Source: a virus
Reading direction: 5' to 3' (one strand)
Virus record (IMG/VR): IMGVR_UViG_3300025030_000054
Span: 1 to 64,000 of that record
DNA length: 64,000 nt
The number at the start of each line of letters is the position of its first letter. The first letter of the stretch is position 1. The notes under the pieces are model-generated. The model ran no database searches and had not been told where the DNA came from. It saw only the letters and a list, made by a program, of their open reading frames with translations. Shown here piece by piece: positions 21,291 through 47,352 of the stretch. Made by a program: the position numbers and the translations under genes.

Positions 21291-21647
21291 ATGAAAAAGC
21301 ACATAAAAGTTAGTGCTAAATATAACAGAGATGGAGAGACTTTTACGTTGACTGTTAAGGAGATGACTCATCCTTCTGTGTTTGACTTTGGAGGTGGCCA
21401 GTCCGAAGTGACCTCAGAGTATAGAGTCAAGATGTTTGTTCATGGAAATACTTTGTTAGCTTTTAACGGACTTACTGGTTTTGGTGACTCGGAGTTTACC
21501 TTAAGAGCTTGGTCAGCACCTAAAGAAGTCACAAAAGTTTTCGTACTAAACTCCCAAGAATCTGAAAACACAATGACCCTTCCTGTTAAATACTGGCCGG
21601 ATTTAAGGGAAGCTATTAAGGCTTACAATGAATTTTACTCTGAATGA
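21291..21647 (+). CDS. KHxK...YNE paralog family member 1
   Basis: MKKHIKVSA...EMTH...WPDLREAIKAYNEF. Confidence 0.8.
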   Translation: MKKHIKVSAKYNRDGETFTLTVKEMTHPSVFDFGGGQSEVTSEYRVKMFVHGNTLLAFNGLTGFGDSEFTLRAWSAPKEVTKVFVLNSQESENTMTLPVKYWPDLREAIKAYNEFYSE

Positions 21648-21854
21648 AAATAGGAGAATTATATGAAACAGAGTACTAAAGACGAGGTAAAAGTCGTTAA
21701 GGTTATAAATTCTTGCGTTACTTTTGAGCAGTGGTGGGTGGCTAGAGAGATGGTTAAGAATTGGGACAGGATGCACTGGGAGAAGTGGCGTAGCAGTCCT
21801 TTGTGGAAGATACTTAACAGAAAATACAAAAAACTTATCTATAAGGAGAACTAA

Positions 21855-22308
21855 AATGGACAGATTCGCTGATGCTAAAGTTGGTGATAAGGTTTATGAT
21901 AGAGTGTATGGTTTTGGTAAAGTGAAAGCAACACACCCATATAGTAATAAAGACCAGCTTCCGTTAAAGATAGACTTCCACAAACACATAGGGACACATT
22001 CTTATAGCAGTTGTGGGAAGTCCTACCTCCACGCGGAAGAAGCCACCCTCTTCTATGTAGACGGTGGCAACAAATACGCCGAAAAGAGGCCCATTCCAAA
22101 AGTGCCTTGGGATAAAGTTCCGGTTGATACTAAGATTATAGTCGGCGGCGATATGAAGAGGTATTACGCTGGATTTAAGCATTTCTATCCCGTAGGGCTG
22201 ACTTCTTGGACTAATGGAATACCTGTAGAGAAATTTGGCTCTCACATCGTAGTCTTGGCAGAAGAAATAACAATCGACGGCGTAGTTTATCCTATAGGGA
22301 GTAAATAA
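21855..22308 (+). CDS. SH3/KOW-like hypothetical protein
   Basis: KVGDKVYDRVYGFGKV; start moved to ATG 21855 by RBS AAGGAG. Confidence 0.55.
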
Positions 22309-22318
22309 GGAGACTGAA

Positions 22319-23683
22319 ATGTCCACAAAAGCACTTGAAATATGCCTAGAAGTTCACAAACAAAACGGAACTGCCTACATAACCGGAGGGGCTGTTAGAG
22401 ATATGCTTTTGGGGTGGCCTTGCAATGATGTAGACCTTGAAGTGTTCGGAATTTCTCAGGAAACTCTGGAGACTATTTTGAACACTGTCTGTTCTAAGGT
22501 AGATCTTGTAGGCAAATCTTACGGAATTTACAAGGCAGATGGTATTGACGTGGGATTTCCTCGTAGAGACAGAACACATGGAAAAGGGGCTGACGTTGAA
22601 ATTGATCCTTACATGTCAGTTGAAGAAGCTGCTTTGCGGAGAGATCTTACAGTAAATTCCATGTATTTCAACCCGATAACTATGGATATAATTGATCCTT
22701 TTGGTGGTAGGGTAGATTTACAGAGACAACTTGTAGGTATGGTTTCTTATGACACTTTCAACGAAGACCCATTGAGGCCAATTAGAGCAGCTAGGTTTTG
22801 TGCTACTTTGGGTTTATTTCTACACGGTGATACTTTAACGGCTTGCCAAACTGCTGATCGAAACAAAATACACAACTTACCCAAAGAACGTATTTTCGGT
22901 GAACTTGAAAAAGTACTGATGGAAGCAGAATATCCTTCAGTATTCTTCGAAGAACTTGATGACATGGATTTGACTAAAATTCTGTTTCCTGAGTTGCAGC
23001 TAACCAAGCAAATAGAACAAGGCAAATGTTACCACCCGGAAGGCTCTGTTTATGCACATTCACTCTTAGCCCTCGATGTACTACCAATAAAAGAAAGATC
23101 CTTAGATGTTTTATTAGCAATCCTATTTCATGACCTCGGCAAAGCATCTGTAGAAACCGAGGTAAGTGGCGATAAGATCAGTTTTAAAGGTCACGCAGAA
23201 GATCTTACCTTAGCTACCGCTGCAATGGCTAGATTGACGGATGATAAAGAGCTGACCGAAAGTGTGCTTAACCTAATCAAATACCACATGCACCCTTACC
23301 AGTTCAAGAACGGAGTGACTAAAAAGCGGATTAGAAGGTTAGCATCGAAAGTTGATGTTAGAAAACTTATGAAAGTTCACAAAGCAGATCAAAAAGGTAG
23401 GGAATATTCAGAGGAGAATAATAAATATGTCAAAAGAAACAATGAAGTTGCTGCTGAAATTATGGCCGTATTTGAAGAGATTGAAGGAGAAATCGTGCCT
23501 ATTATGCAAGGCAGACACCTCATCGAAGCAGGGTGGGTGCCAGGAAAACATTTCGGCTACATTCTTGCGCAGCTTTACGAGTACCAGTTAGACGGCGAAT
23601 TGGTTGATGTTGCTAGTGGCATGGAACTAGCTCATACGTTGTTTGGCGGGGTGAAGAAATCAACAGTTGTTAAAGGAGCCTGA
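22319..23683 (+). CDS. cca: CCA-adding tRNA nucleotidyltransferase with HD domain
   Basis: GGAVRD, DVDLE, RRDLTVN, EDPLR.IRAARF, ERI..EL, HPEG...H, FHDLGK. Confidence 0.92.
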   Translation: MSTKALEICLEVHKQNGTAYITGGAVRDMLLGWPCNDVDLEVFGISQETLETILNTVCSKVDLVGKSYGIYKADGIDVGFPRRDRTHGKGADVEIDPYMSVEEAALRRDLTVNSMYFNPITMDIIDPFGGRVDLQRQLVGMVSYDTFNEDPLRPIRAARFCATLGLFLHGDTLTACQTADRNKIHNLPKERIFGELEKVLMEAEYPSVFFEELDDMDLTKILFPELQLTKQIEQGKCYHPEGSVYAHSLLALDVLPIKERSLDVLLAILFHDLGKASVETEVSGDKISFKGHAEDLTLATAAMARLTDDKELTESVLNLIKYHMHPYQFKNGVTKKRIRRLASKVDVRKLMKVHKADQKGREYSEENNKYVKRNNEVAAEIMAVFEEIEGEIVPIMQGRHLIEAGWVPGKHFGYILAQLYEYQLDGELVDVASGMELAHTLFGGVKKSTVVKGA

Positions 23684-24290
23684 AAATGATTATCTCAAAA
23701 TCTGGATTGCCGCACGCCGAGCAGTATTTAGTGGCCTTGAAAGAACTACGTCAGCAGTATTTGGATTGGCGACGTGGCTCTGTGACGTGCCCTTTGTGTT
23801 GTGTACTTCGAGATTGTTCTGAGTGCCCTTGGCGAACACTTACGGGAGCGAATTGTTTCAGTAGCTTACGGGGTCTAAAACAGAAAAACAAAATTCTAAG
23901 AAAATTCAAGTTTCTAAGAAAAATTGCTCTAAAAATTAACCGACCAATAGCCAAAAGAATCAAAGAGCTGGACCTTTGGATAGCTATTTACAAGCAGTAC
24001 ATCCACTACATCAAAAGAGGTATGCCGCCAGAACTCGCCATGAAACTTACTAAATCACTTTACGGAGACCTTCTAAATGAGGCTAGAAATTAACCTAGGA
24101 ATACTAAAGTTCAGTCTCAGCAAGTCAGGACTCCGTGTAGGAACCAAGATAGGAGATACTTACGTCTCAAAAAGAGTTGTGAAAACTGGTGCTGTGAGTA
24201 AAAAGAAAGAGAAATTGGTAATTACCGAAAAAGCTGCTAAGCGTGTGAAATAGTTCAGACGCTAACTAAGACCCCAAAAGGAGATCTGAG

Positions 24291-24842
24291 ATGGAACAGA
24301 ACGAAGAATTTGTAAGCTTCCCCAAAATGCCGAGGCTTTCCCGCGATGTAGTAGTGACTGAGAAGATCGACGGAACAAACGCACAGGTTTTTATCACAGA
24401 CGATTTCAGGATGTTTGTTGGTAGCCGTAATAAATGGATTCAGCCAGGCAAACAAGACAATGCGGGTTTTGCCGGATGGTGCGAGGCAAATAAAGAAGAA
24501 CTCATGAAGCTCGGCCCAGGAAGGCACTTTGGTGAGTGGTGGGGAAAAGGCATTCAGAGAGGTTATGGATTGTCTGAAAAGAAATTCTCCCTATTCAATG
24601 CAGAACGTTGGGCAGACCCCTCAGTACGCCCTGCTTGCTGCGACGTAGTGCCTGTGTTGTATAAAGGACCGTTTGATACGGCAGCTATCGAGGAAGTTTT
24701 GAGGAAGCTGAAAGAATCTGGTAGCGTAGCTGCACCGGGATTTATGAATCCTGAAGGGATTATCGTCTACCACACCGCTGGAAACTTTGGCATGAAAAAG
24801 ACCATTGATAATGATGGTATGCCTAAATCTCTGGTAAAGTAA
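24291..24842 (+). CDS. RNA ligase (Rnl2-like nucleotidyltransferase domain)
   Basis: TEKIDGTN, GSRN, FGEW, FSLFN, PEGII. Confidence 0.85.
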   Translation: MEQNEEFVSFPKMPRLSRDVVVTEKIDGTNAQVFITDDFRMFVGSRNKWIQPGKQDNAGFAGWCEANKEELMKLGPGRHFGEWWGKGIQRGYGLSEKKFSLFNAERWADPSVRPACCDVVPVLYKGPFDTAAIEEVLRKLKESGSVAAPGFMNPEGIIVYHTAGNFGMKKTIDNDGMPKSLVK

Positions 24843-24898
24843 CTTCGTAGGTTAACCCAAAGAATTACCAACTAAGACCCCAAAAGGAGAATCTTACA

Positions 24899-25261
24899 AT
24901 GGCTAAAAACAAAACTGAAAATGAAGTGGTGAAGTCCTCATCAACTGGTAAAGGGATGACAGGCGAAATCGAGTGCATTTGTAATCGCTGCCAAGCAGTT
25001 ATGAAAGTAACCACAGGAAAGTTCTACACGAAAGCTGTTCCTGCGAGAGCTGCGGTTCCTGCTAAATCGGAACTCAAAGACAAAGAGGGTAACGTTCTTC
25101 GTGAGGCTGTAGCTGCCAAGCCTTTCTTTCCGGGCCGTAGTCTGAGGCACTTCGATATCGTTTCAGGCGGTTGCGACGGCACGCTTTCTACAGTTAACCA
25201 GAAGAAACCTAAGCTGCATAAGAAGTCGCGGGACAAGGCTATTAAGAACAAGCAGAAGTAG
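24899..25261 (+). CDS. Basic hypothetical protein
   Basis: Shares the 21-bp leader AACTAAGACCCCAAAAGGAGA with the ligase gene. Confidence 0.65.
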   Translation: MAKNKTENEVVKSSSTGKGMTGEIECICNRCQAVMKVTTGKFYTKAVPARAAVPAKSELKDKEGNVLREAVAAKPFFPGRSLRHFDIVSGGCDGTLSTVNQKKPKLHKKSRDKAIKNKQK

Positions 25262-25319
25262 TGGATTTCTGAGAACTTTGTGCAGATTAATTAAAATAAC
25301 TGACTAAAAGGAGGAAGTT

Positions 25320-25706: not shown

Positions 25707-25963
25707 GTATTTCTTGAGACTTTGGTAATTACCTATTTTTACACAAACAACTAAACGAGGTAGACAATGCCTAAGAATAAAGACAGAGTGGTAACTGTAA
25801 TGGTAGTGCATACAGCAGCAAACGGTGAAGAAGTTATCAAATCGTTAAATCTTAAAATACCAGACGGCGTATTAGCGAGAAACTTTGCAGCCACTACGTT
25901 TGCAGTCATCGAGAGTTTACTGACCGACTAAACTAAACTAAACTAAATCAAAGGAGAACTAGA

Positions 25964-27064
25964 ATGAAACACATCAAATTCACTGCTACACCCGTTGGCC
26001 CGGATTTTCAGACGGTAGAAGTGGTTATTGTGGAACAGAGTCATGTGCGAGAGCGGTTTGGGATTGGCGGTTCTGATAGGTTTAAGGCGAGCAATGGAAT
26101 GGAACTTCGCAGTATAGCCTGCCCTGAAATATACAGAAACTATATTTGTGTCAGGGGCGATTTAACCTGTGGTAATGACAACAAACTCATCTTCACCACC
26201 TCAGAATACAACAAATTTCGGGAAGCTGCAGAGGAGTACAACGAGTATTTTAAAGACAAACCCAAAAGCAAAAAGCCACAACGTCTTAGGGTCCACGCAG
26301 AAGCTATTGGCCCGGACTTCAAAAATGTGTCTGTGACTGTAGTTGAACAGAGTTGCTTTGAGGGGCAGTTTGGGAATAAGTTTATCTATGAAAAGATAGG
26401 AGATTTTGTACACGGAAAAGTCAGACTTTGCTCTAGTACCGGAGGCAGTGGGGTGAATTTTTTAGAATTTTTTGTTCCATCTGAGTACAAAAACAAAGGA
26501 CTCATCGGAACCTTCTATGTAGCTAACAAAGTGACTAAAGAGGACAAGGAAAAGCTTAAAACTGTTGTTACTGTGGAAGTGTGGCAGGAGATTTTGAAGA
26601 CTGTTGAGGTGTTTAATAAGGAGTTTTGCGAGGATATTTCTGAGACGGAGCTTGCTGAGATTCCTGTGGAGAAGAAGCCCGAGGTTCAGAAAGATAGGTA
26701 TTTTGTAAGGACTAAAAGTAACAGCTCAAATCATAACTTCGCAGCGGGACTTGTAGGCAAGGTCGTAAAAGAATCCAACAGCGGAAGATCTGTTACGGTA
26801 ACTCTCCCTAACGGACAAACAAGTAATTGGCTCAAAGAAAACTGCGTGGAAATCACTGAGATCCCTGTGGTAGAGAAGAAGAGGTGGTTTGTTAGGACTA
26901 AACCTAATCGCTATGCTATTGCTGGTATTATCGCCTCCGTAGGGACTGTTGGGAAATTTGTTCAAGGTAGCGTGGGTGGGGTACACGTAAAGTTGCCTAG
27001 CGGTAAAACTGAATTCTGGGATAGTGAGAACTGCGTCGAGGTTAGGGATCTTCCTAATGTGTAG
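25964..27064 (+). CDS. Paralog family member 2: two family domains plus two SH3-like repeats
   Basis: Duplicated GPDF..V.V..VEQS; duplicated FVRTK...LP.G....W..ENCVE. Confidence 0.8.
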   Translation: MKHIKFTATPVGPDFQTVEVVIVEQSHVRERFGIGGSDRFKASNGMELRSIACPEIYRNYICVRGDLTCGNDNKLIFTTSEYNKFREAAEEYNEYFKDKPKSKKPQRLRVHAEAIGPDFKNVSVTVVEQSCFEGQFGNKFIYEKIGDFVHGKVRLCSSTGGSGVNFLEFFVPSEYKNKGLIGTFYVANKVTKEDKEKLKTVVTVEVWQEILKTVEVFNKEFCEDISETELAEIPVEKKPEVQKDRYFVRTKSNSSNHNFAAGLVGKVVKESNSGRSVTVTLPNGQTSNWLKENCVEITEIPVVEKKRWFVRTKPNRYAIAGIIASVGTVGKFVQGSVGGVHVKLPSGKTEFWDSENCVEVRDLPNV

Positions 27065-27074
27065 TGATGGTTGG

Positions 27075-27143
27075 TAGGTAGTTGAAAGTGTAGTTGATAG
27101 GTAGTTGAAAGTGTAGTTGATAGGTAGTTGAAAGTGTAGTTGA
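27075..27143. repeat. 23-bp tandem repeat TAGGTAGTTGAAAGTGTAGTTGA x3
   Basis: Read directly. Confidence 0.95.
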
Positions 27144-27152
27144 AAGGATAAG

Positions 27153-27332: not shown

Positions 27333-28157
27333 TTAGGCAGCTTGTTTTACTGCCTGATTAGAGTCATATGATATTGTGTCCTGAGAAGTATATGGAATTA
27401 TGCTTGTATCAATGCCAAGATGATAGTCGAGAATTTGAGTGAGATTGTCAATGTCTTTGTAGGATATTACTAACAGTTTAATGTTGTTTTTAAGTGCGTA
27501 GTCGATCTTGAGTTGATCGCGGTATTTTATTACCTCTAAATTCTTTTTCATAGTCTCTTCAGACCTATCTGAACCGAAACTAGTTGGAAAAAAATGTTGT
27601 ATTCCGCGGCTCTCGCAGAGAATTTCCGCTTCAGGTAAGTAGAAGTCATATCTCAAAGACATTCCGGTAAGGTTATTTTTCAAGTCTGGGAATGTCTTTT
27701 CACGTTTGTATTTTATGTTTCGTAGGTTGAGATACCCTGCAAGTTTTATTTCAAATTTAGAGCTACTACAGAATCTGCAACCGTCTCCTCTACGTATATG
27801 TCGTCCGAAATTTTGTGTAAACACTCCGTGATGTGGGCATATAATAGAAACTTTTCTCTTAGAACCTTTATACGTTGTAGGGTCAATTAGGGAATAATCG
27901 TACTTCGACTGATGAATAATATTCGCACGTCTTATTTGCTCCTCTAAAGGTATTGTTTTGGCTGTGTTTGCACAAGACGGACAGCCAGCACCGCGAAGAT
28001 GCGCGTTAGGCGACTGAGAGAACTCTCCATGAATTCGGCAGATAATAGGTACTTTGACCTTGTTTTGAGTGTAGACTACCTTAGAGTAGTCGTAAGTGTC
28101 TCCATATAGTGCCGCGGCATCCGATATAAACTCTTCTGTTGTTTTTCTTTTACCCAT
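27333..28157 (-). CDS. Homing endonuclease: CxxHG zinc repeats (DUF723-like) plus PD-(D/E)xK/Vsr-like domain
   Basis: YDYSKV.Y...IICRIHGEF.Q.PNAHLRG.GCP.C twice; LRYDFYLP...E..G.QHF; start placed by RBS AAGGAA. Confidence 0.85.
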   Translation of the reverse strand: MGKRKTTEEFISDAAALYGDTYDYSKVVYTQNKVKVPIICRIHGEFSQSPNAHLRGAGCPSCANTAKTIPLEEQIRRANIIHQSKYDYSLIDPTTYKGSKRKVSIICPHHGVFTQNFGRHIRRGDGCRFCSSSKFEIKLAGYLNLRNIKYKREKTFPDLKNNLTGMSLRYDFYLPEAEILCESRGIQHFFPTSFGSDRSEETMKKNLEVIKYRDQLKIDYALKNNIKLLVISYKDIDNLTQILDYHLGIDTSIIPYTSQDTISYDSNQAVKQAA

Positions 28158-28213
28158 TTGCATGTTCCTTACAGTAGAAATAGTCGAACGCAACCTATTG
28201 TAATTACGTTCAC

Positions 28214-28247: not shown

Positions 28248-28291
28248 CCTGAAAATGGTAATTACCTAAATCAACTAAAAGGAGACGAGAG

Positions 28292-29665
28292 ATGGAGAAA
28301 GGATTCGTAAGAACTGCGCCCAGCCCTACTGGACGACCTACGTTAGGTACTTCTAGAACGGCGATTTACAACTTTCTACATGCAAGACAGCAAGGTATGG
28401 GGTATTTAACCAGGCTAGAGGACAGTGATCCAGTACGCTCTAAGCAAGAATTCGCTGACGATATTATAGAAGGACTTGCGTGGCTTGGGATAGTATCTGA
28501 CGTGCCAATCATAAAACAATCTGAGCGTGGAGATATATATGCAAAATACGTGGATCAGTTGTTAGCCGAAGGTAAAGCATACCGGTGTTACTGTTCGGCT
28601 GAGAAGTTAGAAGCGGATCGGGAGAGGAAACTAGCGGCAAAAGAGAAGCCTATTTACGACAGAACTTGCTTAGGGCTTGGTGAGCAGCCGGGCAAGCCTT
28701 TTACGGTGAGGCTGAAGGTGGATACCTACGGCGCTGTGACTTTTCGGGATGCTGTGTACAAAAGGGTGAATGTGAGGAAGGCAGAAATTGGAGATTTTAT
28801 TGTTCAAAGAAGTGATGGCACAGTAGGGTACCTTCTATCTAACGTAATTGACGATGCTTTGCAAAATGTTACTATGGTTATAAGAGGCCGCGATGGAATT
28901 AGTAACGCTCCCGCACAAATTTTATTGTATGAGGCTCTCGGTTTTCCAGTACCTAGCTACGCCCACGCCGCCTTTATATTAAACGAAAAAGGTCAGAAAC
29001 TTTCCAAGAGGAACGGAGATGCCTCACTATTGGACTACCGCGATAAAGGTTACTTGCCAGAAGCTATGTTCAACGCCCTCGCAAGAATAGGAGCAAGTTT
29101 CGGGGATAGGGAACTGTTAAGTGTAAAGGAGATGGTAGAGCTATTTGACCTAAAAAATCTTAGTAAATCCGATGGCGTTTTCGACCCTCAAAAGCTTCTT
29201 AACATCAACAAGCACTGGATCAAAACCATTGAACCAGAAAGATTACAAACACTATTAACCCCATTCCTTCTTAAAGAACAAATAACCGAAGAACAAATAT
29301 CCGAATTTAATAAAGTATCTTCAGTAAGTAAGGCAATCCAAACGCTACAAACTCGCTCGGCCACCCTTGTAGAAATGGCTCAAAAGGCTAAATTCTACTT
29401 CATACGGCCAGCCTATTCGTCCATCAGTTTAACAGGATTTCAAAAGGCAATTTTACAGTCATTCATAGACAACCTAACCAACAACAACTCAATAGACGAA
29501 GCCATAGAAGAAACCTGTAAGCAAGCTAACTGCACGATAAAGGAACTTGGGCCGCCGGTTAGATTATCCCTCTCAGGCTCTCTTGCAGCACCCGGAATAG
29601 TAGAAATCATTGAAGTTCTGGGGACCAAAGAAACTATTGAAAGGATTAAATTGGTAATTACCTAA
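28292..29665 (+). CDS. gltX: Glutamyl-tRNA synthetase homolog with divergent HIGH motif
   Basis: RTAPSPTG, RLEDSD, QSER, AYRCYC, VIRG, KLSKR, FDPQKL, anticodon domain PVRLSLSG. Confidence 0.92.
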   Translation: MEKGFVRTAPSPTGRPTLGTSRTAIYNFLHARQQGMGYLTRLEDSDPVRSKQEFADDIIEGLAWLGIVSDVPIIKQSERGDIYAKYVDQLLAEGKAYRCYCSAEKLEADRERKLAAKEKPIYDRTCLGLGEQPGKPFTVRLKVDTYGAVTFRDAVYKRVNVRKAEIGDFIVQRSDGTVGYLLSNVIDDALQNVTMVIRGRDGISNAPAQILLYEALGFPVPSYAHAAFILNEKGQKLSKRNGDASLLDYRDKGYLPEAMFNALARIGASFGDRELLSVKEMVELFDLKNLSKSDGVFDPQKLLNINKHWIKTIEPERLQTLLTPFLLKEQITEEQISEFNKVSSVSKAIQTLQTRSATLVEMAQKAKFYFIRPAYSSISLTGFQKAILQSFIDNLTNNNSIDEAIEETCKQANCTIKELGPPVRLSLSGSLAAPGIVEIIEVLGTKETIERIKLVIT

Positions 29666-29710: not shown

Positions 29711-30070
29711 ATGAAGAAGCATATTAAGATCCGAGCGGAGCTAGTTGATAACAAAACTAGAGTCAAAGTAACCATTCTGGAACAGTCCCATTTCCTCTAC
29801 TACTTCGCAGAACATAAAACAAGTTTTATAAATGAGACTCACGCTTTCTGTCACGGTAGAATCAGAATGGCTTCTCATAGAGAAAATATTCCTAAATTTA
29901 TGATAGGAGGTCTAACTAGCAAAGAATTTAAGAAAAATGGCATAGTAGACAAACTCTATGTAGCTCATTCCCAGTACCAACTACCAGTCACTTTCACAGT
30001 TACTTTAAAAGACTACCCAGCAATCAAAAAGTGCATCGAAGCATACAACTCATACGAATTCACTAACTAA
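29711..30070 (+). CDS. Paralog family member 3
   Basis: MKKHIKIRAEL...ILEQSH...YPAIKKCIEAYNSY. Confidence 0.8.
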   Translation: MKKHIKIRAELVDNKTRVKVTILEQSHFLYYFAEHKTSFINETHAFCHGRIRMASHRENIPKFMIGGLTSKEFKKNGIVDKLYVAHSQYQLPVTFTVTLKDYPAIKKCIEAYNSYEFTN

Positions 30071-31980: not shown

Positions 31981-32334
31981 ATGAAAAGGCACCTGAAGGT
32001 TAGAGCTGAATTAGTAAGACGTAATGAAGAAGTTAAGGTTACTATACTAGAGAAAGTTGCGGAGCCTAGTAAATTTAGTAAGATAGGAATGTCTCACCCA
32101 AGTCACCATTCAGGAGTATTTAGGCATGAAGATGTGCTTTTGATATCTTTAGATTGGTTGCAAAAATCTAGGTACACTGGATTTAAGTGGAATACTGGAT
32201 TTGGAATTAACATGCACTATTTCGAGATAGGCCATACTCCTACTTTAACTCTCCCAATAAAAGTATGGCCAAAGATAAAAAAGGCTATCGAAGCGTACAA
32301 CGAATGGGGTGCTGAAAATCCTATAGAGGAGTGA
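31981..32334 (+). CDS. Paralog family member 4
   Basis: MKRHLKVRAEL...WPKIKKAIEAYNEWG. Confidence 0.8.
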   Translation: MKRHLKVRAELVRRNEEVKVTILEKVAEPSKFSKIGMSHPSHHSGVFRHEDVLLISLDWLQKSRYTGFKWNTGFGINMHYFEIGHTPTLTLPIKVWPKIKKAIEAYNEWGAENPIEE

Positions 32335-32340
32335 TAATGA

Positions 32341-32631
32341 ATGAAACATTTAAAACTAAGAGCCAGACTCGTTCCAAACTCCAAAGAAGCAATTGTTACT
32401 GTAGTTGAGCAGACACATGGATACTACGAGTTTGGGAATAGTGCAGGTAAGTCACACTTCAGATGTTCAGAAGGAGCTATAAGTTCACACCCGATGACTG
32501 TGCCACTAATGGGTTCTAATTTATGGCTAGGAACAGGGCCTGGAATAGAATTCATAATACAACAATCACGGTGGCCTAAAATCAAAAAGTTAGTAGAAGC
32601 ATACAATGAATGGGGAGCAACTCAACCTTAA
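32341..32631 (+). CDS. Paralog family member 5
   Basis: MKHLKLRARL...VEQTH...WPKIKKLVEAYNEWG. Confidence 0.8.
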   Translation: MKHLKLRARLVPNSKEAIVTVVEQTHGYYEFGNSAGKSHFRCSEGAISSHPMTVPLMGSNLWLGTGPGIEFIIQQSRWPKIKKLVEAYNEWGATQP

Positions 32632-33380: not shown

Positions 33381-33677
33381 AATTAATTACTCCTGAAACT
33401 ACTTTCGATATGGTTACGTTTGACCTAGAAAATCCTGCCATAGACCCCTTCGTAGAAAGGTTGAATGAACGGGAAAGGCTAGAAAGTGGGCACTGCTGGG
33501 TTTGTTGCAATGAGTTTGACAAGGGATCTGGAAAATTACTTAGAGAATCAGACCCTAACTGTTACGAAATAGCCAACCGTTTAGATGTTTGTCCAAGTTG
33601 TTGTGGAGTTGTTAACCCAGACGCCTTTAATTTCTACTGAGCTAAGAAATTGGTAATTACCTATTTAGGAGGAACTG

Positions 33678-34016
33678 ATGCCAGATAGTAAAGAAAGGAG
33701 GTGGGAAGGTGAAAAGAAATGGATCAAGTATCGTGCTAAATTAACCACAGATAAGAAATCAGTAGCTGTTACTATTTTAGAGCAGAGTCATAGGAGCTAT
33801 AACTTTGGAGTGGGAGGTGAGGATGAGTTTAGGTATCTCGGCTACGGCATAGGCAGTATCGCTTATCCAGATACGACTTCTGTGTTCACGTACCTACGAG
33901 GCAGCGAAACCAGCCGAGACGACACAACCATATACATGCCACTAGAAATGTACCAGAAGTTCAAAGCTACAGTTCTAGCTTATAACAAGTATTTTAAAGG
34001 CGACTCAGAAGACTAA
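33678..34016 (+). CDS. Paralog family member 6
   Basis: KWIKYRAKL...ILEQSH...FKATVLAYNKY. Confidence 0.8.
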   Translation: MPDSKERRWEGEKKWIKYRAKLTTDKKSVAVTILEQSHRSYNFGVGGEDEFRYLGYGIGSIAYPDTTSVFTYLRGSETSRDDTTIYMPLEMYQKFKATVLAYNKYFKGDSED

Positions 34017-34090: not shown

Positions 34091-34483
34091 ATGAAACACA
34101 TTAAACTCGAAGTAGCAGCTAACCCGGAATTCAGCCAGACACTTATCCGCGTAGTTAGCCAGACCAACGTAGGCAAAAAGTTCGGCAACATGAAAGGCGA
34201 CCTGCGTAAATTCAAAGCGGCCAACGGTCTTACAATCGCTAGCAACCTGTTCCCCGCTAAAGATGAGGACTTCAGGAACACTCAGACGATTTGGCTTCAG
34301 GGTCTTGGCTCTGCATCTCAAAATGCTACTTGCCTTGCCCTCCCCAATGACGTGGCAGTTAAACTTTGCGAGGCTGTTGAGGAGTATAATGAGTACTATA
34401 CCCAAGCTAACGTTAACCGCCGCGTGCAAGCCAAGCGTGAAGCTGCGGCACTTCGTAGTGGCCGTGTCGAGTACGTTGGGTAA
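34091..34483 (+). CDS. Paralog family member 7
   Basis: MKHIKL...SQTN...FKAANGL...EAVEEYNEYY. Confidence 0.8.
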   Translation: MKHIKLEVAANPEFSQTLIRVVSQTNVGKKFGNMKGDLRKFKAANGLTIASNLFPAKDEDFRNTQTIWLQGLGSASQNATCLALPNDVAVKLCEAVEEYNEYYTQANVNRRVQAKREAAALRSGRVEYVG

Positions 34484-34602: not shown

Positions 34603-35064
34603 ATGAAACACATCAACGCTAAAGTAATGATTCTTCCGAGCTTTTCCAAGGGACTCATCAAGATCACCGGCCAGACCCACATCAACACTGCTTTCGGTAA
34701 CTCTGATGACGGCAAAACCTTCACAGCTACTAACGGTATTACTCTCGGAAGTAACCGCCGAGTCGCTAGGGATGCTGACGAGGTAAACACCATCTGGCTT
34801 CGTGGCACGGATACTTCTAAAAATTACACTTCGCTTGCTATTCCGGTGAAACGTCTTGGTAAAGTTGTCGATGCTATTAAGGAGTATAACGAGTACTACT
34901 CCGTAGCTAGCATTAACCAGCGAGTCAGGACTAAACGCGCAGCAGAAGCCGAAGCAGCTCGTCAGGCACTTATCGAAGCAGCTCGTCAGGCAGAACTCGC
35001 AAGGCAGGCTGAACTTGCTCGCCGTGCTGTTACTTTCTCTTCCTGCACGTTCATCGTAGGTTAA
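34603..35064 (+). CDS. Paralog family member 8
   Basis: MKHINAK...GQTH...FTATNGI...DAIKEYNEYY; same leader as member 7. Confidence 0.8.
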   Translation: MKHINAKVMILPSFSKGLIKITGQTHINTAFGNSDDGKTFTATNGITLGSNRRVARDADEVNTIWLRGTDTSKNYTSLAIPVKRLGKVVDAIKEYNEYYSVASINQRVRTKRAAEAEAARQALIEAARQAELARQAELARRAVTFSSCTFIVG

Positions 35065-35071: not shown

Positions 35072-35407
35072 GTGCCCCCGCGAGAGCATAGGCACATAAA
35101 GTATAGAGCTGAATTGTTGAGTTGTAGGAGTCGGGTTAAAGTCATGGTCCTTGAGCAAACCCACAGGGGCCGTGACTTTGCTTTACCAGAGGATGGGAGT
35201 GCTCTATACTCAGGTGGTCAGAGTTTTGAGCATGAGAACACAATATTGGGAAGCTGGTCTTACCCAGAGTTTTTAGATGGCCGTGACTGGGTGGCCTTGC
35301 GGGGAGACAACCCAGCAAGAGACTTATACCCCATAACATTCCCAACTCTGCAATCTTACTACGATTTTAAAGCTGCTGTGCTTGCCTACAATGAGAGGTA
35401 TAAGTAA
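35072..35407 (+). CDS. Paralog family member 9
   Basis: RHIKYRAEL...VLEQTH...FKAAVLAYNERY. Confidence 0.8.
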   Translation: MPPREHRHIKYRAELLSCRSRVKVMVLEQTHRGRDFALPEDGSALYSGGQSFEHENTILGSWSYPEFLDGRDWVALRGDNPARDLYPITFPTLQSYYDFKAAVLAYNERYK

Positions 35408-39879: not shown

Positions 39880-40434
39880 ATGGGGCATCATAAAGAGCTA
39901 CCTGAATCTGTGAAACAACATGCAGATAGGGTAGGTAGATTGGCCAGACTATCTGCAAGAGCTACTGGCAAAGACGAGAGAGCAGCTTATCTTGCGGGTA
40001 TTTTTCACGATGACGGGAAAGCTACCTTGCCTCCTGAACTGTTTGACGGCAGGGAGATAACCTTAGAAGAGTACTTGCTAATCAAAGAACACGCTATAAG
40101 AGGCTACCTTGATCTAAAAGAGAGGATGCCCTTCACCGGACTATGCTCTGGTTTACACCATGAAATGTCTGTGGTGGACGGCTATGGAATTACTTTGGAG
40201 GATATCCCTAAAGAATTATCTTTCGCAGACCTTAAAAAGATTTTAGACATTGCCACCATAGTTTCCATCGCAGACTTCATAGATGCTTATAATACTAGGA
40301 AGACTTCAATAGGACTTGGTGGTGCTAAAAAATTGGGGCTGAAAGAACTTCTCTGTAATAGGTACCCCTCAGAAATCCCTTTAGTGACTGTGATGTTGGA
40401 ATTGAGCGAAGAATTGTACAAACAAACCACCTGA
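39880..40434 (+). CDS. HD-GYP-like phosphodiesterase domain
   Basis: HADRV, FHDDGK, IKEHA.RG, HHE..VDGYG, IVSIADFIDA. Confidence 0.8.
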   Translation: MGHHKELPESVKQHADRVGRLARLSARATGKDERAAYLAGIFHDDGKATLPPELFDGREITLEEYLLIKEHAIRGYLDLKERMPFTGLCSGLHHEMSVVDGYGITLEDIPKELSFADLKKILDIATIVSIADFIDAYNTRKTSIGLGGAKKLGLKELLCNRYPSEIPLVTVMLELSEELYKQTT

Positions 40435-40455
40435 GAAACCAAAAGGAGAAATAAT

Positions 40456-41274
40456 ATGGATGAGAATAGCAAGCAGGGAGGTGAGGTGATTGAGAGTGTG
40501 GATTTAGGTAATACCAATTTAGAGCCTAAGCACAGGGAAAATTCATCTAAAGAATTATTTCAAAAAGATCCGGCAAGGTATTGGTACATTGAAGGAATGA
40601 GAGACGAAATAGAGTTACTGTACGAAGAGGCGGCTACTAAATACACCGCTGCGTACACTCAGGCAATTAGGGAAGGTAGATCTTCCGCGTTGCCTTACAA
40701 GTGGGAAGCCATGCGGTGTATTGAATTTGCAGCGATTTATAAAGGTTTAATGGATGAATGGGCAGCTACTAAAAATACTGGCCGAATGATTGACGAGCAT
40801 CAGCACATGGTTCACTGGTATGATGAGAAATCAGTGGTACCAAAAGAATTACTCGACGTGTACAAGAAAAAGGTTCCTGCGGGATTTCTATATAACGTAG
40901 TAATATATAACAGAGAAAATAAACAATGCCGGTTTGTCCACTCACTAGATTATCATAAGGACTCTGACCCTCTTATGGATAGAGAGTATGTTGCATATCC
41001 TGGAGGGTTTGTTCAGGCAAATGTGTATATCAAAGACCCTGAAGTTATCTTTCACAAGTGGATGTTAACCTCTAATAAACTTAATGACACACACGATTTC
41101 AGGAATGCGGTTAAGAGAAGCATCAGACTGAGGTACTTGCAAATGCCTGATTCGCTTAGACAAGAAATGCACAAGAGTAGTGTGTACAAAAAGTATGTGG
41201 CTCCCGCTATTGGAAATCGTAGTGTGGGTAGTTTGTTCGATGACTTTGTTGCCTACAAGGCTGGGTTAGTATGA
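40456..41274 (+). CDS. Hypothetical protein
   Basis: 272 aa ORF with RBS AAGGAG. Confidence 0.7.
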   Translation: MDENSKQGGEVIESVDLGNTNLEPKHRENSSKELFQKDPARYWYIEGMRDEIELLYEEAATKYTAAYTQAIREGRSSALPYKWEAMRCIEFAAIYKGLMDEWAATKNTGRMIDEHQHMVHWYDEKSVVPKELLDVYKKKVPAGFLYNVVIYNRENKQCRFVHSLDYHKDSDPLMDREYVAYPGGFVQANVYIKDPEVIFHKWMLTSNKLNDTHDFRNAVKRSIRLRYLQMPDSLRQEMHKSSVYKKYVAPAIGNRSVGSLFDDFVAYKAGLV

Positions 41275-41600
41275 AAAAATATCTTAAAGTTCGTGGAGAG
41301 TTGGTCTACCCAGATAACAAATTCGTTCGTATGACAGTGCTAGAAAATAGTCATGATGGTTATGAGTTTGGTGGGAACTCTGATGGCAGGCTTGGTGGTT
41401 ATGTATTTGTAACTGGAAGAATCAGACTTAGGGCCACTAAAACAGCACTTCCAAGTTTTTATGTAGCTCCTGCAGGCACATATTATGTATGGGTAACTCT
41501 AGGAAACCCAATAGGCGGCTCTATCCTAATACCCATAGAGTACTGGAAAGAAGTTAAAGAAGCTGTTCTAACCTACAACGAATGGGGGAAATCTCAATGA
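41271..41600 (+). CDS. Paralog family member 10
   Basis: MKKYLKVRGEL...VLENSH...WKEVKEAVLTYNEWG. Confidence 0.8.
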   Translation: MKKYLKVRGELVYPDNKFVRMTVLENSHDGYEFGGNSDGRLGGYVFVTGRIRLRATKTALPSFYVAPAGTYYVWVTLGNPIGGSILIPIEYWKEVKEAVLTYNEWGKSQ

Positions 41601-42211
41601 AACATTTAAAACTACGTGCTGAATTGGATAAGATAGATAAAAATTTCTGTTTTGTGGAGGTAGTTGAGCAGACACATAGGAGGTTAGATTTTGGGGTTAC
41701 TTTTAGTGGAGCCGGTTCTTTTGCTCATGGAGAGATTATGCTAGTGTCTTATGGAGAACCTCAGTGGGTTAACCACGGATTTGGCCGGGGTGGACATTCA
41801 GGGGTAGCCTTCCGGTTGTATGTACGGGGTCATCAAGAACAAAGAGATAAAGATAAAGTGAGAGTACCTACAAACATGTGGCCTAAAATAAAAGCTGCTG
41901 TTTTGGCTTATAATGAATTTTATTCTGGTAATAAAGAGGTGAAGAAAGAGAGTAAGGTAGAACCAGTAGTTAAAGCGACTGTTAAAAGTAAGGCTGATAA
42001 AGAATCTGACTGGGGCAGAATAACCAAAGAGTCTTTTGAGAAGTGCCTTGCTCAATATACTTCCACACTGGACACTGAATTTATTTATAGTGACTCAGTA
42101 GTAGAAGCGCCGCCAAGTCCACGGTGGCAAGCTACAAGGCGTACCTTTAACACTGATTTAAGGGGCTACATTACTTCTGCCTATTTTTTGGATGACCTTA
42201 ATGGCGACTAA
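41597..42211 (+). CDS. Paralog family member 11 with C-terminal extension
   Basis: MKHLKLRAEL...VEQTH...WPKIKAAVLAYNEF; ATGA overlap with member 10. Confidence 0.8.
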   Translation: MKHLKLRAELDKIDKNFCFVEVVEQTHRRLDFGVTFSGAGSFAHGEIMLVSYGEPQWVNHGFGRGGHSGVAFRLYVRGHQEQRDKDKVRVPTNMWPKIKAAVLAYNEFYSGNKEVKKESKVEPVVKATVKSKADKESDWGRITKESFEKCLAQYTSTLDTEFIYSDSVVEAPPSPRWQATRRTFNTDLRGYITSAYFLDDLNGD

Positions 42212-43310: not shown

Positions 43311-43760
43311 GGAGGAGTCTATGAAAGTCGGTGACATTATAGGGGCTGGAGACGGAACTTTGATAGGCTTAACATGCAGTATTGAAAGTATACAAGGTAA
43401 GCAAATAGATGCTTGGGTTATTAATGGAGAATGGAATATTACTTTCTTTTTAGATAATAGAGCCACTATATGTCACTCTCCAGAAGGTCCAAGAGAGTTG
43501 CCTAGACAGAAAATTATGACAACATTCCCGATTCCTAAAGGACTAAATTATAATGAGCAGTTAGAGTATATGAATAAGCAATTTAGCAGCAGCCCTATAA
43601 TTAGGTATACTACCGGCAAACTCTTAATGGTTAGGATGTGGGCATCTAAAATTCAAGATTCTTTAGCAGCAGCCTCAGTAGCATTTAAAAAGACATGGAA
43701 AGGAGAACCAGAAGATATCTCTGATAGCGATATCCCATTCTAAAAATTAAAGGAGACTAA

Positions 43761-45119
43761 ATGAAAGAATTTCAAGTGCTTAAAGATATTCAAAATACTA
43801 CCTCCAAAAAAGAAAAAGAGGCCATCTTGTATTGTAATGATTCAGAGACTCTTAGAAAGATGCTTCTGTACTGTTACTCTCCGCTTCTCACGTACAGAGT
43901 TAAACAGATTGATTTTCCAGATAAATATAACACTGTCCAGCCAGATATTTCTGATGAACTGTTCCGACTACTTGACCTACTAGCTACACACACGGTCGGG
44001 ACAAATGACGCTAAAGCTATGATTAAAAGATTGCTAGCTAAGTGTACGGAAGATGGTGCTAATTGGGTTTGTAAAATAATTAGTAAAGACCTTAAGATAG
44101 GGATTTCTGAGTCAACCATCAACAAAGCTTTTCCTGACCTTGTGCCTACTTTTAAGGTTCAATTAGCACTTCCGATGACTGAGCCTAAATCTGGGGAAAC
44201 TAGGTGGGACACAATTACTTACCCTAACTCTTGGATTCAGGAAGTTAAGCTAGACGCTCTTAGGTGCGTTGCTCTGTGTGATGGTGAAAAAGTTATATTT
44301 AGTAGCCGTGAAGGGTTTGAATTTGAGTCTTTAGATTTCCTGGCCAGCGAAGTTTTGAAGTTAGCTCAAGGTCGTGCTATAGTTTTAGACGGTGAAATTG
44401 TAGCGACTACTTACAATCCAAACTGTAAGGTTGCTAAAAAGAACTTTGAAGCAGGAACTAAATGGGTATTTCCTCAATCAAGTAGCATGGTCCGTTCAAG
44501 CAAAGGTTCATACACTGAAGAGGAAATGAAAAGGTGCCTTACCTACGTAGTTTGGGATGTTGTTAGTTACGACTACTTTCTGAGCCAAGGGAAAGAAGGA
44601 ACTTGCAAGCCTCTAAGGTACCGTAAAACTGAACTGGCGGGTATGTTTGAGGCGACTTCTGAACTTTCTAACATAAAGCGGATTTCAAGTAGACCTGTAG
44701 AATCTAAGGAAGGGGCTGTCGAATATCACAAAGAAATGATTGACCGAGACGAAGAAGGCACGATGCTGAAAGATCTTGATGCTGTTTATGAGTTTAAAAG
44801 GTCGCCTACTGTGTTGAAATTAAAAGACTTTTTTACAAGTGACCTGAGAATCATAGGAGCAGTAGAAGGTACTAAAGGTTCTAAGTATGAAATGTCTTTG
44901 GGCACTTTGGTAGTCAGTGACGATGCAGATTTGGTTAGTGAGGTGGGAACTGGAATTGACGACGATCTTAGGTTAAACATGTGGTTCAGGCATAAACGAG
45001 GAGAACTTGTTGGGGGAATTGTTGAAGTAATTTTTCAGGAACGCACGGCAGATAATAGTTTGAGACTCCCTGTGTTCGTTAGAGAGCGTCCTGAAAAAAT
45101 GGAAGTTTCGTGGGGCTGA
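43761..45119 (+). CDS. lig: ATP-dependent DNA ligase
   Basis: EVKLDALR, LDGEI, VWDV, EEGTMLK, YEFKRS..VLKLK, OB fold (VGTG, SLRLPVF). Confidence 0.93.
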   Translation: MKEFQVLKDIQNTTSKKEKEAILYCNDSETLRKMLLYCYSPLLTYRVKQIDFPDKYNTVQPDISDELFRLLDLLATHTVGTNDAKAMIKRLLAKCTEDGANWVCKIISKDLKIGISESTINKAFPDLVPTFKVQLALPMTEPKSGETRWDTITYPNSWIQEVKLDALRCVALCDGEKVIFSSREGFEFESLDFLASEVLKLAQGRAIVLDGEIVATTYNPNCKVAKKNFEAGTKWVFPQSSSMVRSSKGSYTEEEMKRCLTYVVWDVVSYDYFLSQGKEGTCKPLRYRKTELAGMFEATSELSNIKRISSRPVESKEGAVEYHKEMIDRDEEGTMLKDLDAVYEFKRSPTVLKLKDFFTSDLRIIGAVEGTKGSKYEMSLGTLVVSDDADLVSEVGTGIDDDLRLNMWFRHKRGELVGGIVEVIFQERTADNSLRLPVFVRERPEKMEVSWG

Positions 45120-45165
45120 TTGGTAGCAAAATAGGTAATTACCTAAATCTTAAGGAGGGGGTACA

Positions 45166-45540
45166 ATGAAGCACCTTAAAATACGGGCAGAGTACAGACC
45201 TGCCACAAAAGACGTAGAAGTAACTTTATTAGAGCAGTCGCATTTTGGTACTGATTTCGGTAGGATAGAAGATGCTTTTAAGATTGATCCAAAAAATAAT
45301 TGTGTGTTTAAACATAATGGTGTGGCGATTTATAGCCATATCACTTACAATAGAACCCCAATCTATTTTCACAAAAACAAGTACTCAAACGAAGTAAACA
45401 AAATTACCACTTGGATTTGCTTAGGAGATAGTTCCTCAATATTCAAACAAACTAAAGTAGAAAACACAGTGCCGATTGCTGAATGGCCAGCCTTGAAAGC
45501 AGCTATTGAAGCCTACAACGAATGGGGAGTTATCCAATGA
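45166..45540 (+). CDS. Paralog family member 12
   Basis: MKHLKIRAEY...LLEQSH...WPALKAAIEAYNEWG. Confidence 0.8.
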   Translation: MKHLKIRAEYRPATKDVEVTLLEQSHFGTDFGRIEDAFKIDPKNNCVFKHNGVAIYSHITYNRTPIYFHKNKYSNEVNKITTWICLGDSSSIFKQTKVENTVPIAEWPALKAAIEAYNEWGVIQ

Positions 45541-45887
45541 AACATTTAAAAATTAGAGGGGAACTTGTAAAAGAAGCTAAGGATAAAGTTAAAGTAACCA
45601 TTCTGGAACAGACGCATTTCTTTAGAGAGTTCGGTAATGTTACAGATAAAATGGCTGGCTCTGCCTTTATTCATGGAGAAGGGATTTTGCACAGCGACGG
45701 AGAAGAGCCTTTATACAGCGGCAAAAATTCATACGCCGGACCTGACGCAAAGTACTACCACTGGCTATTTGTTAATGGGCAATCACACCACAAAGGCGAT
45801 GTTGTGGAACCTATAACACTAGAGGCTTGGGCAGTTTTGAAAGAAACTGTGAAGGCTTACAACGAATGGGGAGCAGATCAACCTTAG
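45537..45887 (+). CDS. Paralog family member 13
   Basis: MKHLKIRGEL...ILEQTH...LKETVKAYNEWG; ATGA overlap with member 12. Confidence 0.8.
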   Translation: MKHLKIRGELVKEAKDKVKVTILEQTHFFREFGNVTDKMAGSAFIHGEGILHSDGEEPLYSGKNSYAGPDAKYYHWLFVNGQSHHKGDVVEPITLEAWAVLKETVKAYNEWGADQP

Positions 45888-45900
45888 AGGAGAAACTACT

Positions 45901-47004
45901 ATGTCGATTTTAGATAAATTTGCCTCACTTATTCCACTTGAAGATTTAGAAGAAGGAGCTAAACAACAAATTTACAACATCCTGAAACTTGACTGTTTAA
46001 AGAAACTTGCATTGATGCCAGATGCCCACCAAGGCTATGATATGCCTATTGGTGGAGTGGCTTTGCTAGACGGATTTATCTCAGCTAGCTTCGTGGGCTA
46101 TGATTTGGGATGCGGCGTATGCCATATAGCTACTGAAGAAAACGCAGAAGACTACTCAAAAGATGATTTACAACACATTTATAAGACTATCCACAAGACT
46201 ATTCCGACAGGGTTTTCTTCACATTATCATTCTAAAGACTATCTTCCTAAGTTTAAGTCTGCGATTCTTGATAAACAGACCACTGACAGAATAGCAGAGA
46301 AGGTTGACTTTCAGCTTGGTACACTAGGCGGTGGAAACCACTTCATAGAAATTGGAAGCAATAGGAAAGGTAAACTGGCGGTAACTATCCATTCTGGCTC
46401 TAGGAATGTGGGACATACTATCGGCGGGGCTTATATGAAGATGGGTCGTATGTTTGAACTTTCTTCGGAACTAGGTCAGTCTTACCTGAGAGACATGAAC
46501 TACGCACTTGACTGGGCTTTGGAAAACAGAATGCAAATGATGCGGAAGGTTTTAGAAGCAATTGGGATTAATAATAAAAATATAACGGTAGTCTTGAAGG
46601 ACGTTATAAACGAGAACCATAATCATGCTGTAGTTACTTCTGAAGGTGTTTTGCACCGTAAGGGAGCTACTCCTGCTGATTTAGATCAACTTGGTATTAT
46701 TCCGGCTAACATGCGAGACGGAGTTTATATTACTAGGGGTTTAGGTAATACCGAATTTTTGTCATCAGCTAGTCACGGTTGCGGTAGGCTTATGGGAAGG
46801 AACGTAGCTAAGAAATCTCTAGACTACGATGAATTCGTAACTCAGATGGAAGGTATTGTATGCTCCACCGACAGAAGCATTTTAGATGAGGCTCCAAATG
46901 CCTATAAAGATGTTAACTATGTGCTTGATGCTCAAGTTGGTAGGACTGTGGAAGTTGTTGATTTTATTAAGCCTTTGCTAAATATTAAAGCAGGAGGAGA
47001 CTAA
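45901..47004 (+). CDS. rtcB: RtcB RNA ligase
   Basis: MPDAHQG, VGYDLGCG, GTLGGGNHFIE, HSGSR, HRKGAT, SHGCGR, DEAPNAYK. Confidence 0.96.
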   Translation: MSILDKFASLIPLEDLEEGAKQQIYNILKLDCLKKLALMPDAHQGYDMPIGGVALLDGFISASFVGYDLGCGVCHIATEENAEDYSKDDLQHIYKTIHKTIPTGFSSHYHSKDYLPKFKSAILDKQTTDRIAEKVDFQLGTLGGGNHFIEIGSNRKGKLAVTIHSGSRNVGHTIGGAYMKMGRMFELSSELGQSYLRDMNYALDWALENRMQMMRKVLEAIGINNKNITVVLKDVINENHNHAVVTSEGVLHRKGATPADLDQLGIIPANMRDGVYITRGLGNTEFLSSASHGCGRLMGRNVAKKSLDYDEFVTQMEGIVCSTDRSILDEAPNAYKDVNYVLDAQVGRTVEVVDFIKPLLNIKAGGD

Positions 47005-47007
47005 CCA

Positions 47008-47352
47008 ATGAGCAGACACCTAAAAATAAAAGCACAATTAAATCTAGATAAAAAGACAGCAACTCTCACGTGGATTTCTCAAACTCATTTTGGAAGTAAT
47101 TTTGGAAATAGTAGGCCGGTTGGTAGTTATATGTTTGACAGTAGCTCCTTCAATATTGGCAACTTTAGTCTTGTAAGTCATCCTGACAACGAGTTCAGAA
47201 AAGCGAGGTTAAGCCTGCCTAGTAATAAAAATAATAAATGGTTTTTGGTACCTTGTCGAATCAATCCGTGGAATCCAACCACTACAATAGAAGTAGAAGA
47301 CTGGCCTTGGATTAAAAAACTGGTGGAATCTTACAATGAATTTTACAAATAA
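47008..47352 (+). CDS. Paralog family member 14
   Basis: MSRHLKIKAQL...SQTH...WPWIKKLVESYNEF. Confidence 0.8.
   Translation: MSRHLKIKAQLNLDKKTATLTWISQTHFGSNFGNSRPVGSYMFDSSSFNIGNFSLVSHPDNEFRKARLSLPSNKNNKWFLVPCRINPWNPTTTIEVEDWPWIKKLVESYNEFYK

Follow-up and report, generated by a model that had tools for sequence, protein, structure and literature searches.

The DNA studied here is the first 64 kb (64,000 nucleotides; the window) of the viral contig IMGVR_UViG_3300025030_000054 (G000; 105,687 bp), the genome of an uncultivated, probably virulent 106-kb phage. Its central part carries 14 genes for small proteins, named below by their start positions, which by sequence comparison form one homologous family of 15 domains (Table 1). 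An original prediction, made from the letters of the window alone, had listed these genes, and all 14 open reading frames (ORFs) were found on the plus strand at the starts it gave. Both domains that it assigned to gene 25964 were recovered, together with a C-terminal extension, and its N- and C-terminal motifs proved correct in translations and alignments. In an all-versus-all BLASTP comparison, the best partner of each domain scored between E 3e-6 and 4e-25. A leave-one-out hidden Markov model (HMM), built each time from the other 14 domains, recovered 15 of 15 (E 7e-28 to 1.5e-13), and when all six frames of G000 (105,687 bp, full length) were scanned with the HMM, the 15 known domains were the only matches. 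The domains measure ~96–125 aa, the members have a median isoelectric point (pI) of ~9, and the family occupies ~6.0 kb, or 5.7% of the genome.

Sequence conservation is uneven along the domain. Averaged over all pairs of the 15 domains, identity falls from 37% at the N end to 17% in the core and returns to 34% at the C end, and the core varies in length from 40 to 69 aa. The N-terminal hairpin is conserved as K-H-[IL]-K-x-R-A-E-L ... [IV][LV]-E-Q-[TS]-H ... F-G and the C-terminal helix as W-x-x-[ILFV]-K-x-A-[VI]-x-A-Y-N-E, seen in the translations of the 14 genes as W-P-x-[IL]-K-x-A-[IV]-x-A-Y-N-E. Position-wise conservation was taken from a 126-sequence alignment that includes metagenomic relatives, with residues numbered as in gene 45537. 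Within the core, F44, L51, S53, P58, a hydrophobic triplet at 77–79 ([LV]) and G81 are strongly conserved, and variation is confined mostly to the stretches ~34–43, 54–76 and 82–92, with 54–76 as the chief site of length change. The earlier picture of fixed ends around a hypervariable core thus stands as far as the ends are conserved and the core divergent, but it overlooks six framework positions that persist inside the core; judged from the alignment, the domain is better described as a conserved framework interrupted by three loops or hairpins that vary. The near-invariant polar residues are K2, H3, K5, E24, Q25, T26, H27, K102, Y108 and N109, and on strand 1 the residues H3, K5 and R7 alternate and are conserved.

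Table 1 Genes of the family and other features of the locus. Positions refer to the window unless marked as genome positions; palindrome stands for the sequence GGTAATTACC.
Feature	Position	Strand	Length	Remarks
Family gene	21291..21647	+	118 aa	Single domain; 23 nt past palindrome at 21258; leave-one-out E 3e-17
Family gene	25964..27064	+	366 aa	Domains at residues ~1–100 and 101–225; two putative SH3-like repeats at ~245–366 (26700–27064)
Family gene	29711..30070	+	119 aa	After GluRS; 48 nt past palindrome at 29653
Family gene	31981..32334	+	117 aa	Leads tandem pair
Family gene	32341..32631	+	96 aa	Shortest member; second of tandem pair
Family gene	33678..34016	+	112 aa	Short ‘canonical’ type; 16 nt past palindrome at 33652
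Family gene	34091..34483	+	130 aa	Domain, basic linker and C-terminal tail ending VEYVG
Family gene	34603..35064	+	153 aa	Domain, Ala/Arg-rich linker and C-terminal tail ending SSCTFIVG
Family gene	35072..35407	+	111 aa	GTG start as listed
Family gene	41271..41600	+	109 aa	Leads ATGA-coupled pair
Family gene	41597..42211	+	204 aa	Domain and ~90-aa C-terminal extension without family match
Family gene	45166..45540	+	124 aa	22 nt past palindrome at 45134; leads ATGA-coupled pair
Family gene	45537..45887	+	116 aa	Modelled domain, pLDDT 90.8
Family gene	47008..47352	+	114 aa	Immediately 3' of RtcB
CCA-adding enzyme with HD domain	22319–23683
PF09414 RNA ligase	24291–24842
GluRS	28292–29665
HD hydrolase	39880–40434
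ATP-dependent DNA ligase	43761–45119
RtcB	45901–47004
ClpP-family protease	genome 74,689–75,525	+		Outside window; PF00574, E 4e-27
Homing-endonuclease-like gene	3645–4682	+
Homing-endonuclease-like gene	27333–28193	-		Zinc-finger DUF4379/DUF723
Homing-endonuclease-like gene	51519–52841	-
Homing-endonuclease-like gene	genome 72611–73540	+
23-nt repeat	27070–27147			~3.4 units; between 25964 and the minus-strand gene 27333–28193
Palindrome copies	5291–49612			Span of the 23 copies in the window
Palindrome copies	genome 66528, 79106, 100340

AlphaFold2, run on gene 45537 with the 126-sequence alignment, produced a confident model (predicted local distance difference test, pLDDT, 90.8; predicted template modelling score, pTM, 0.86) that consists, in this order, of a long N-terminal beta hairpin, a short helical turn at F-G, four or five further strands and, at the C terminus, a helix of 18 residues. 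For 25964, the part with the two domains was modelled with a pLDDT of 85.7 and a pTM of 0.61 and shows this order of elements twice; the models show 6–7 strands and the C-terminal helix. Because the models of 25964 and 45537 share their element order, short and long members appear to adopt one fold. The original prediction of a diversified small scaffold with variable binding loops had been set against the outcome that members have unrelated folds. Both models instead show the same secondary-structure order, so that the scaffold and its loops hold up on two confident models; active diversification of the core is not supported (see below). For the neighbouring pair 45166 and 45537, complex prediction with alignments gave values of 0.32, 0.01 and 0.00 in separate runs without controls, which count neither for nor against the hetero-oligomers that had been proposed.

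Comparison of both models with known structures gave no convincing analogue. Foldseek returned nothing at E ≤ 0.001 from the PDB, and from BFVD uncharacterized phage proteins alone (template modelling score, TM, 0.37–0.53; best E 0.044). A VIA-align comparison with 48,161 chains reached best Z scores of 4.9 and 4.5, below the typical best for models without a true match. PH-like chains (FERM F3, Akt, Grp1, Avo1, Spt16) were frequent among the top VIA-align rows for both models, in alignments that cover 49–56 of ~100–116 residues, the hairpin and helix only. The PH-like superfold is a seven-stranded antiparallel beta sandwich with an amphipathic helix at its C-terminal end; the predicted domain resembles it in an antiparallel beta framework, a single C-terminal helix as a cap and variable inter-strand loops, but it differs in that Z stays at or below 4.9, no sequence relation is seen and no Pfam bPH model matches. 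We therefore treat ‘PH-like’ as a description of the predicted shape and not as membership. OB and PUR rows in the Foldseek output (POT1, RPA70N, PURA) lie at noise level (TM 0.14–0.23, E > 0.3), and no PUR/Whirly-like or OB-fold chain is found among the top 50 VIA-align rows. Three further candidates judged by eye, a PLD-like HxK motif, a motif of 2H phosphoesterases and a metal site of the cupin type, were dropped as inconsistent with the order of motifs, the size of the domain and the predicted fold.

Sequence searches likewise placed the family outside annotated protein space. Ten members gave nothing above noise against Pfam-A and PHROGs v4. Among the 126 aligned members, no PHROGs family was matched by more than two (best E 0.0095). 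Ten multi-domain relatives had no match in Pfam, fifteen members none in PADLOC 2 or NCBIfam 20, and the family profile none among PDB chain sequences. The original statement that no known domain is recognizable was thereby confirmed against four HMM libraries and PDB sequences, and the profile search it had proposed matched no characterized family. Two family proteins found no match by tblastn in 50,697 isolated phage genomes, nor did 15 kb of the region by megablast against isolated phages. Two pattern scans of 185,579 bacterial and archaeal species genomes found no relative and thus offer neither a host clue nor a prophage copy. A word-indexed protein search returned just 15 unnamed matches and no longer fused forms, a cluster look-up of relatives gave no informative names, a search with the relative P0161 had no match, the ESM Atlas yielded no usable feature match for the domain and a literature search found nothing on this family. 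Three viral contigs of 142–146 kb, matched via the relative P0031, were dropped; two of them were profile-searched, both without a family match. Taken together with the models, these results describe a real, so far unannotated family with an apparently novel fold.

To gain insights into the distribution of the family, we searched 1.84 billion cluster representatives (50% identity) with the profile. At E ≤ 1e-3, this search yielded 613 representatives, and at the stricter E ≤ 1e-10 it yielded 191; several of them, from metagenomes, hold 2–5 tandem domains. In IMG/VR, the family was found on a few related contigs, of which two are complete genomes with direct terminal repeats, G002 (113,142 bp; 29 family matches) and G003 (113,294 bp; 15 matches). 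The others are fragments: G004 (51.6 kb; 14 matches), G005 (21.6 kb; 10 matches) and G001 (59 kb; 4 matches), the closest relative of G000. The 29 domains of G002 amount to roughly 9–10% of its 113-kb genome (sum of frames). A metagenome scan returned mostly contigs already known from the viral collection, together with two small contigs from the same samples. The DNA polymerase of G000 is at best ~25% identical to those of isolated phages. The phage clade is uncultivated, and its anaerobic ribonucleotide reductase of the NrdD type is a hint of anaerobic conditions.

G000, G002 and G003 are syntenic, and their backbone proteins, among them the CCA-adding enzyme, RNA ligase, GluRS, DNA ligase, helicases and DNA polymerase, are 45–75% identical. 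Family genes occupy the gaps between backbone genes, and their number per slot varies among relatives; between GluRS and the homologue of gene 32610, for example, G000 has three copies and G002 seven. Two-domain orthologues of 25964 are present in G002 and G003. Family orthologues of G000 and G001 are 69–81% identical, and between its orthologues of 45166 and 45537 G001 carries an additional member. Copies are therefore gained and lost even among close relatives.

The history of the copies was examined in a tree of 63 domains, drawn from four genomes and computed by a quick maximum-likelihood search; only its well-supported pairs are trustworthy. The median terminal branch is 0.92 substitutions per site. 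Copies interleave across genomes, and the 15 G000 copies need 14 label changes, no better than shuffled labels. The tree holds a few clear orthologue sets, such as the two-domain protein, and some local tandem duplications in G002. Rates were pooled from three orthologue pairs of G000 and G001. The nonsynonymous divergence (dN) and its ratio to synonymous divergence (dN/dS) are 0.09 and 0.21 at the N end, 0.32 and 0.30 in the core, and 0.05 and 0.21 at the C end; synonymous divergence (dS) is 0.24–0.42 at the ends and 1.07 in the core. The core thus evolves several times faster, yet under purifying selection, which acts on each copy examined. Codons at identical end residues agree in just 43–54%, so that the ends are conserved as protein and not homogenized as DNA. 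Reverse transcriptase (PF00078) is absent from the whole of G000, where control genomes matched, and the region of 21–47.5 kb contains no long direct repeats or template/variable pairs; the longest family-derived repeat measures 46 nt at 63–78% identity.

The family genes belong to a plus-strand early/middle block at 21–47 kb, beside replication, RNA-repair and unrelated genes, and the terminase and the largest ORFs lie in a separate minus-strand block. They often form tandem arrays with translational coupling: ATGA overlaps join 41271 to 41597 and 45166 to 45537, and 31981 and 32341 are six bases apart. Of 20 members that end in ...Y-N-E-W-G, 14 have the next family gene within 20 nt downstream, compared with 7 of 33 members with other endings (Fisher p = 0.001). 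The W-G codons supply a TGGGG ~10 nt upstream of the next ATG, as seen at 32311–32343, 41574–41600 and 45514–45540, and at this distance TGGGG plausibly doubles as the downstream Shine-Dalgarno sequence. Such a role would plausibly account for part of the C-terminal variation without any protein function.

The palindrome GGTAATTACC occurs 23 times in the window, where 0.05 copies are expected, and 26 times in the genome. Its extended consensus is approximately aaAWT-GGTAATTACC-tAaa, and it usually lies 15–50 nt upstream of a ribosome-binding site and start codon. The original prediction had noted that four family clusters begin right after it, which is correct in that 16–48 nt separate it from the ATG of each (Table 1). 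However, the palindrome also precedes GluRS, the 36491 gene and many small early ORFs, and it is shared with G001, but the 93 kb fetched from G002 and G003 contain no copy. Because relatives with more family copies do without it, it is not tied to the family and is probably a general, strain-specific expression signal, either promoter or operator.

The position of members next to gltX and on both sides of rtcB, also pointed out originally, is true of this genome, but the adjacency to rtcB is not conserved: G001 has no RtcB between the orthologues of 45537 and 47008, and the complete genome G002 has none at all. As G002 carries 29 domains, the family is independent of RtcB. Around the family genes lies a dense set of genes for RNA repair and translation (Table 1). 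No tRNA genes were found in the whole of G000. The Pfam match of RtcB is itself split into model positions 1–89 and 133–425, with ~40 model positions missing. Furthermore, G000 contains free-standing homing-endonuclease-like genes of the GIY-YIG LEM-3-like, zinc-finger DUF4379/DUF723, HNH/D5-like DNA-binding and HNH types, two of which oppose the strand of all their neighbours. The unit of the 23-nt repeat downstream of 25964 has a consensus of roughly GTTGATAGGTAGTTGAAAGTGTA.

Several members carry additional modules. The C-terminal half of 25964 is predicted to hold two tandem SH3-like repeats (TM 0.42–0.50 in the ESM Atlas), an assignment that serves as a structural lead only; in P0016, a relative with 78% identity to 25964, three such repeats are apparent by eye from the sequence. 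The two-domain orthologue of G002 and G003 ends not in SH3-like repeats but in a C-x-hydrophobic(3)-Gly tail, and some other relatives end in Cys-rich, zinc-finger-like tails. In one subfamily, an Ala/Pro/Lys-rich or basic linker is followed by a C-terminal hexapeptide, mostly C-[ATS]-[VIF]-[IV]-[IV]-G (general form ...[IVLFYM][IVLFYM]G; for example CAVIVG, CTVIIG and CSFILG). This tail is found in 22 of 169 fetched proteins, with 2–4 carriers in each of G000, G002 and G003; these include 34091 and 34603 and the relatives P0010, P0011, P0018–P0025, P0036, P0041, P0066 and others. It may be a docking, processing or conjugation tag. G000 also encodes a ClpP-family protease, which is kept in G002 at 52% identity; its gene and that of the NrdD-type reductase are neighbours within the plus-strand block, at a distance from the terminase gene and the large ORFs of the minus strand.

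We tentatively favour the view, in line with the original proposal of a host-takeover repertoire, that the family is a set of small binding modules with paralog-specific targets, used for host takeover or counter-defence. The members would be soluble, mostly basic binding modules built on a common conserved framework, possibly with a candidate polar patch formed by K2/H3/K5, E24/Q25/T26/H27 and K102/Y108/N109. The variable stretches would give every paralog its own target, and in the tail subfamily the linker and C-[ATS]-[VIF]-[IV]-[IV]-G tail would tether the module to a common partner. Together, the repertoire would bind, block or re-target different host or defence macromolecules during takeover. 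Early/middle tandem arrays with changing copy number fit such an accessory host-interaction repertoire, and the tandem repeats, SH3-like repeats and Cys-rich tails support it as fusions typical of binding modules. What survives of the original proposal is one family on a conserved scaffold with variable loops in such arrays; its links to active diversification, to the palindrome and to rtcB do not, and the anti-defence, antitoxin-mimic and hetero-oligomer roles that it suggested are conjectural.

Several observations weigh against this interpretation. A pI of ~9 suits nucleic-acid binding at least as well as protein binding, and ~10 conserved polar residues per 100 aa may point to a ligand, metal or catalytic site shared by all members. 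The candidate polar patch derives from strand periodicity and not from measured distances. In addition, the paralogs are ancient and not the product of a recent arms-race burst, and bulk dN/dS of the three orthologue pairs gives no sign of positive selection.

The basic charge leads to a second explanation, which we consider unlikely though the strongest of the alternatives: RNA- or tRNA-binding proteins that serve the RNA-repair and translation kit of the phage by shielding or chaperoning host tRNAs or other RNAs. In this scheme, backbone contacts would come from the conserved basic hairpin, and recognition of the RNA species from the variable stretches. The alternating H3/K5/R7 on strand 1 agrees with this, as do the lack of tRNA genes in G000 and the interleaving of family genes with those of the CCA-adding enzyme, PF09414 RNA ligase, GluRS, HD hydrolase and RtcB. 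Nevertheless, G002, with the most copies of the complete relatives, has no RtcB, the copies in G000 are spread over 21–47 kb beside many unrelated genes, and no nucleic-acid-binding fold rises above noise (OB/PUR Foldseek TM < 0.25).

The persistence of the ten polar residues in paralogs that are only 20–35% identical would also be expected if the fixed ends formed a common small-molecule, metal or catalytic site, making the members sponges or small enzymes of differing specificities. We hold this to be rather improbable: 14–29 paralogs per genome would be an uncommon number for an enzyme or sponge, the shortest domain measures no more than 96 aa, and neither fold nor sequence links it to any enzyme or known sponge.

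Even less weight falls on packaged internal or ejected virion proteins, in the manner of the T4 internal-protein locus, with the ends or the tail as capsid-targeting or processing signals. The members are indeed small, basic and polymorphic with a fixed N-terminus, one subfamily has a conserved C-terminal tail after a flexible linker, and G000 encodes a ClpP-family protease. Against this, the genes stand in the plus-strand early/middle block, apart from the minus-strand terminase block, the conserved N-terminus is strand 1 of the fold in both models and not a detachable leader, and only a minority of members has the tail.

A further interpretation, to which we assign a very small chance, is that of a phage-encoded system of combinatorial adaptors. 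Here the conserved pole and, in one subfamily, the tail would dock on a common machine, such as the ClpP-family protease of the phage or an AAA+ protease of the host, and each paralog would use its variable stretches to pick a different host protein that is then destroyed or sequestered. If correct, this would give bacterial viruses an equivalent of the F-box/BTB multigene families found in large eukaryotic viruses, on a fold without a solved analogue.

Finally, an active mechanism of variation, whether through a diversity-generating retroelement or through recombination of cassettes at conserved ends or at palindromes, is largely refuted and highly improbable: conserved ends do flank a variable core and dS is lower at the ends, but the paralogs are old, orthologue dN/dS is 0.2–0.3, reverse transcriptase and long repeats are lacking, codon agreement at the ends is low and the palindrome is missing from the fetched regions of the 15- and 29-copy relatives. 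A retroelement target was rejected on the same grounds, the absence of reverse transcriptase and of a near-identical template repeat.

An uncultivated phage clade thus spends from ~6% to roughly 9–10% of its genome on one domain that is absent from annotation libraries and without a convincing structural analogue, yet abundant in metagenomes (613 clusters). Should the members be target-specific binders, as we tentatively propose, they would constitute a natural library of inhibitors or adaptors against bacterial proteins or defence systems and a compact new scaffold for protein engineering. Were they RNA binders, they would add a so far unrecognized layer to phage tRNA and RNA-repair strategies. 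In both cases, the family merits an entry in Pfam/PHROG and a structure determined by experiment.

Besides the PH-like domains, three kinds of known system bear comparison with the family. SspB-type tethered adaptors consist of a folded domain, a flexible linker and a conserved C-terminal docking peptide. The tail subfamily alone resembles them, in architecture only, by its small, predicted beta-rich domain, flexible linker and short hydrophobic C-terminal peptide; sequence and fold are unrelated, and C-x-hydrophobic(3)-G is unlike known ClpX-binding peptides. SPO1 Gp53, an adaptor-like protein for ClpCP that a phage encodes (bioRxiv 10.1101/569657), belongs to the same comparison. T4-type internal proteins are a polymorphic set of small basic proteins with a shared terminus, at least one of which is an anti-restriction factor; what they have in common is a short N-terminal leader that targets them to the capsid and is cleaved off. 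The likeness lies in small basic phage proteins that have a fixed terminus and differ elsewhere. In the present family, by contrast, both ends are predicted to lie within one folded domain, the genes are in an early/middle block and no PHROG matches.

In large eukaryotic viruses, a hallmark of host manipulation is the expansion of one small scaffold into a multigene family. To our knowledge, an expansion on the scale of 29 domains is uncommon in tailed phages, where such multigene families have rarely been documented. Like the multigene families (MGF) of African swine fever virus (ASFV), the ankyrin/BTB families of poxviruses and the immunity arrays of polymorphic toxins, the genes described here are tandem, diverged paralogs of a small scaffold in variable copy number. 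Those families are used in host interaction and differ in fold and sequence from this one, and no toxin genes were recognized beside the family arrays. By analogy, the closest kind of known system would be the multigene binding-scaffold families of large viruses, here apparently built on a new fold.

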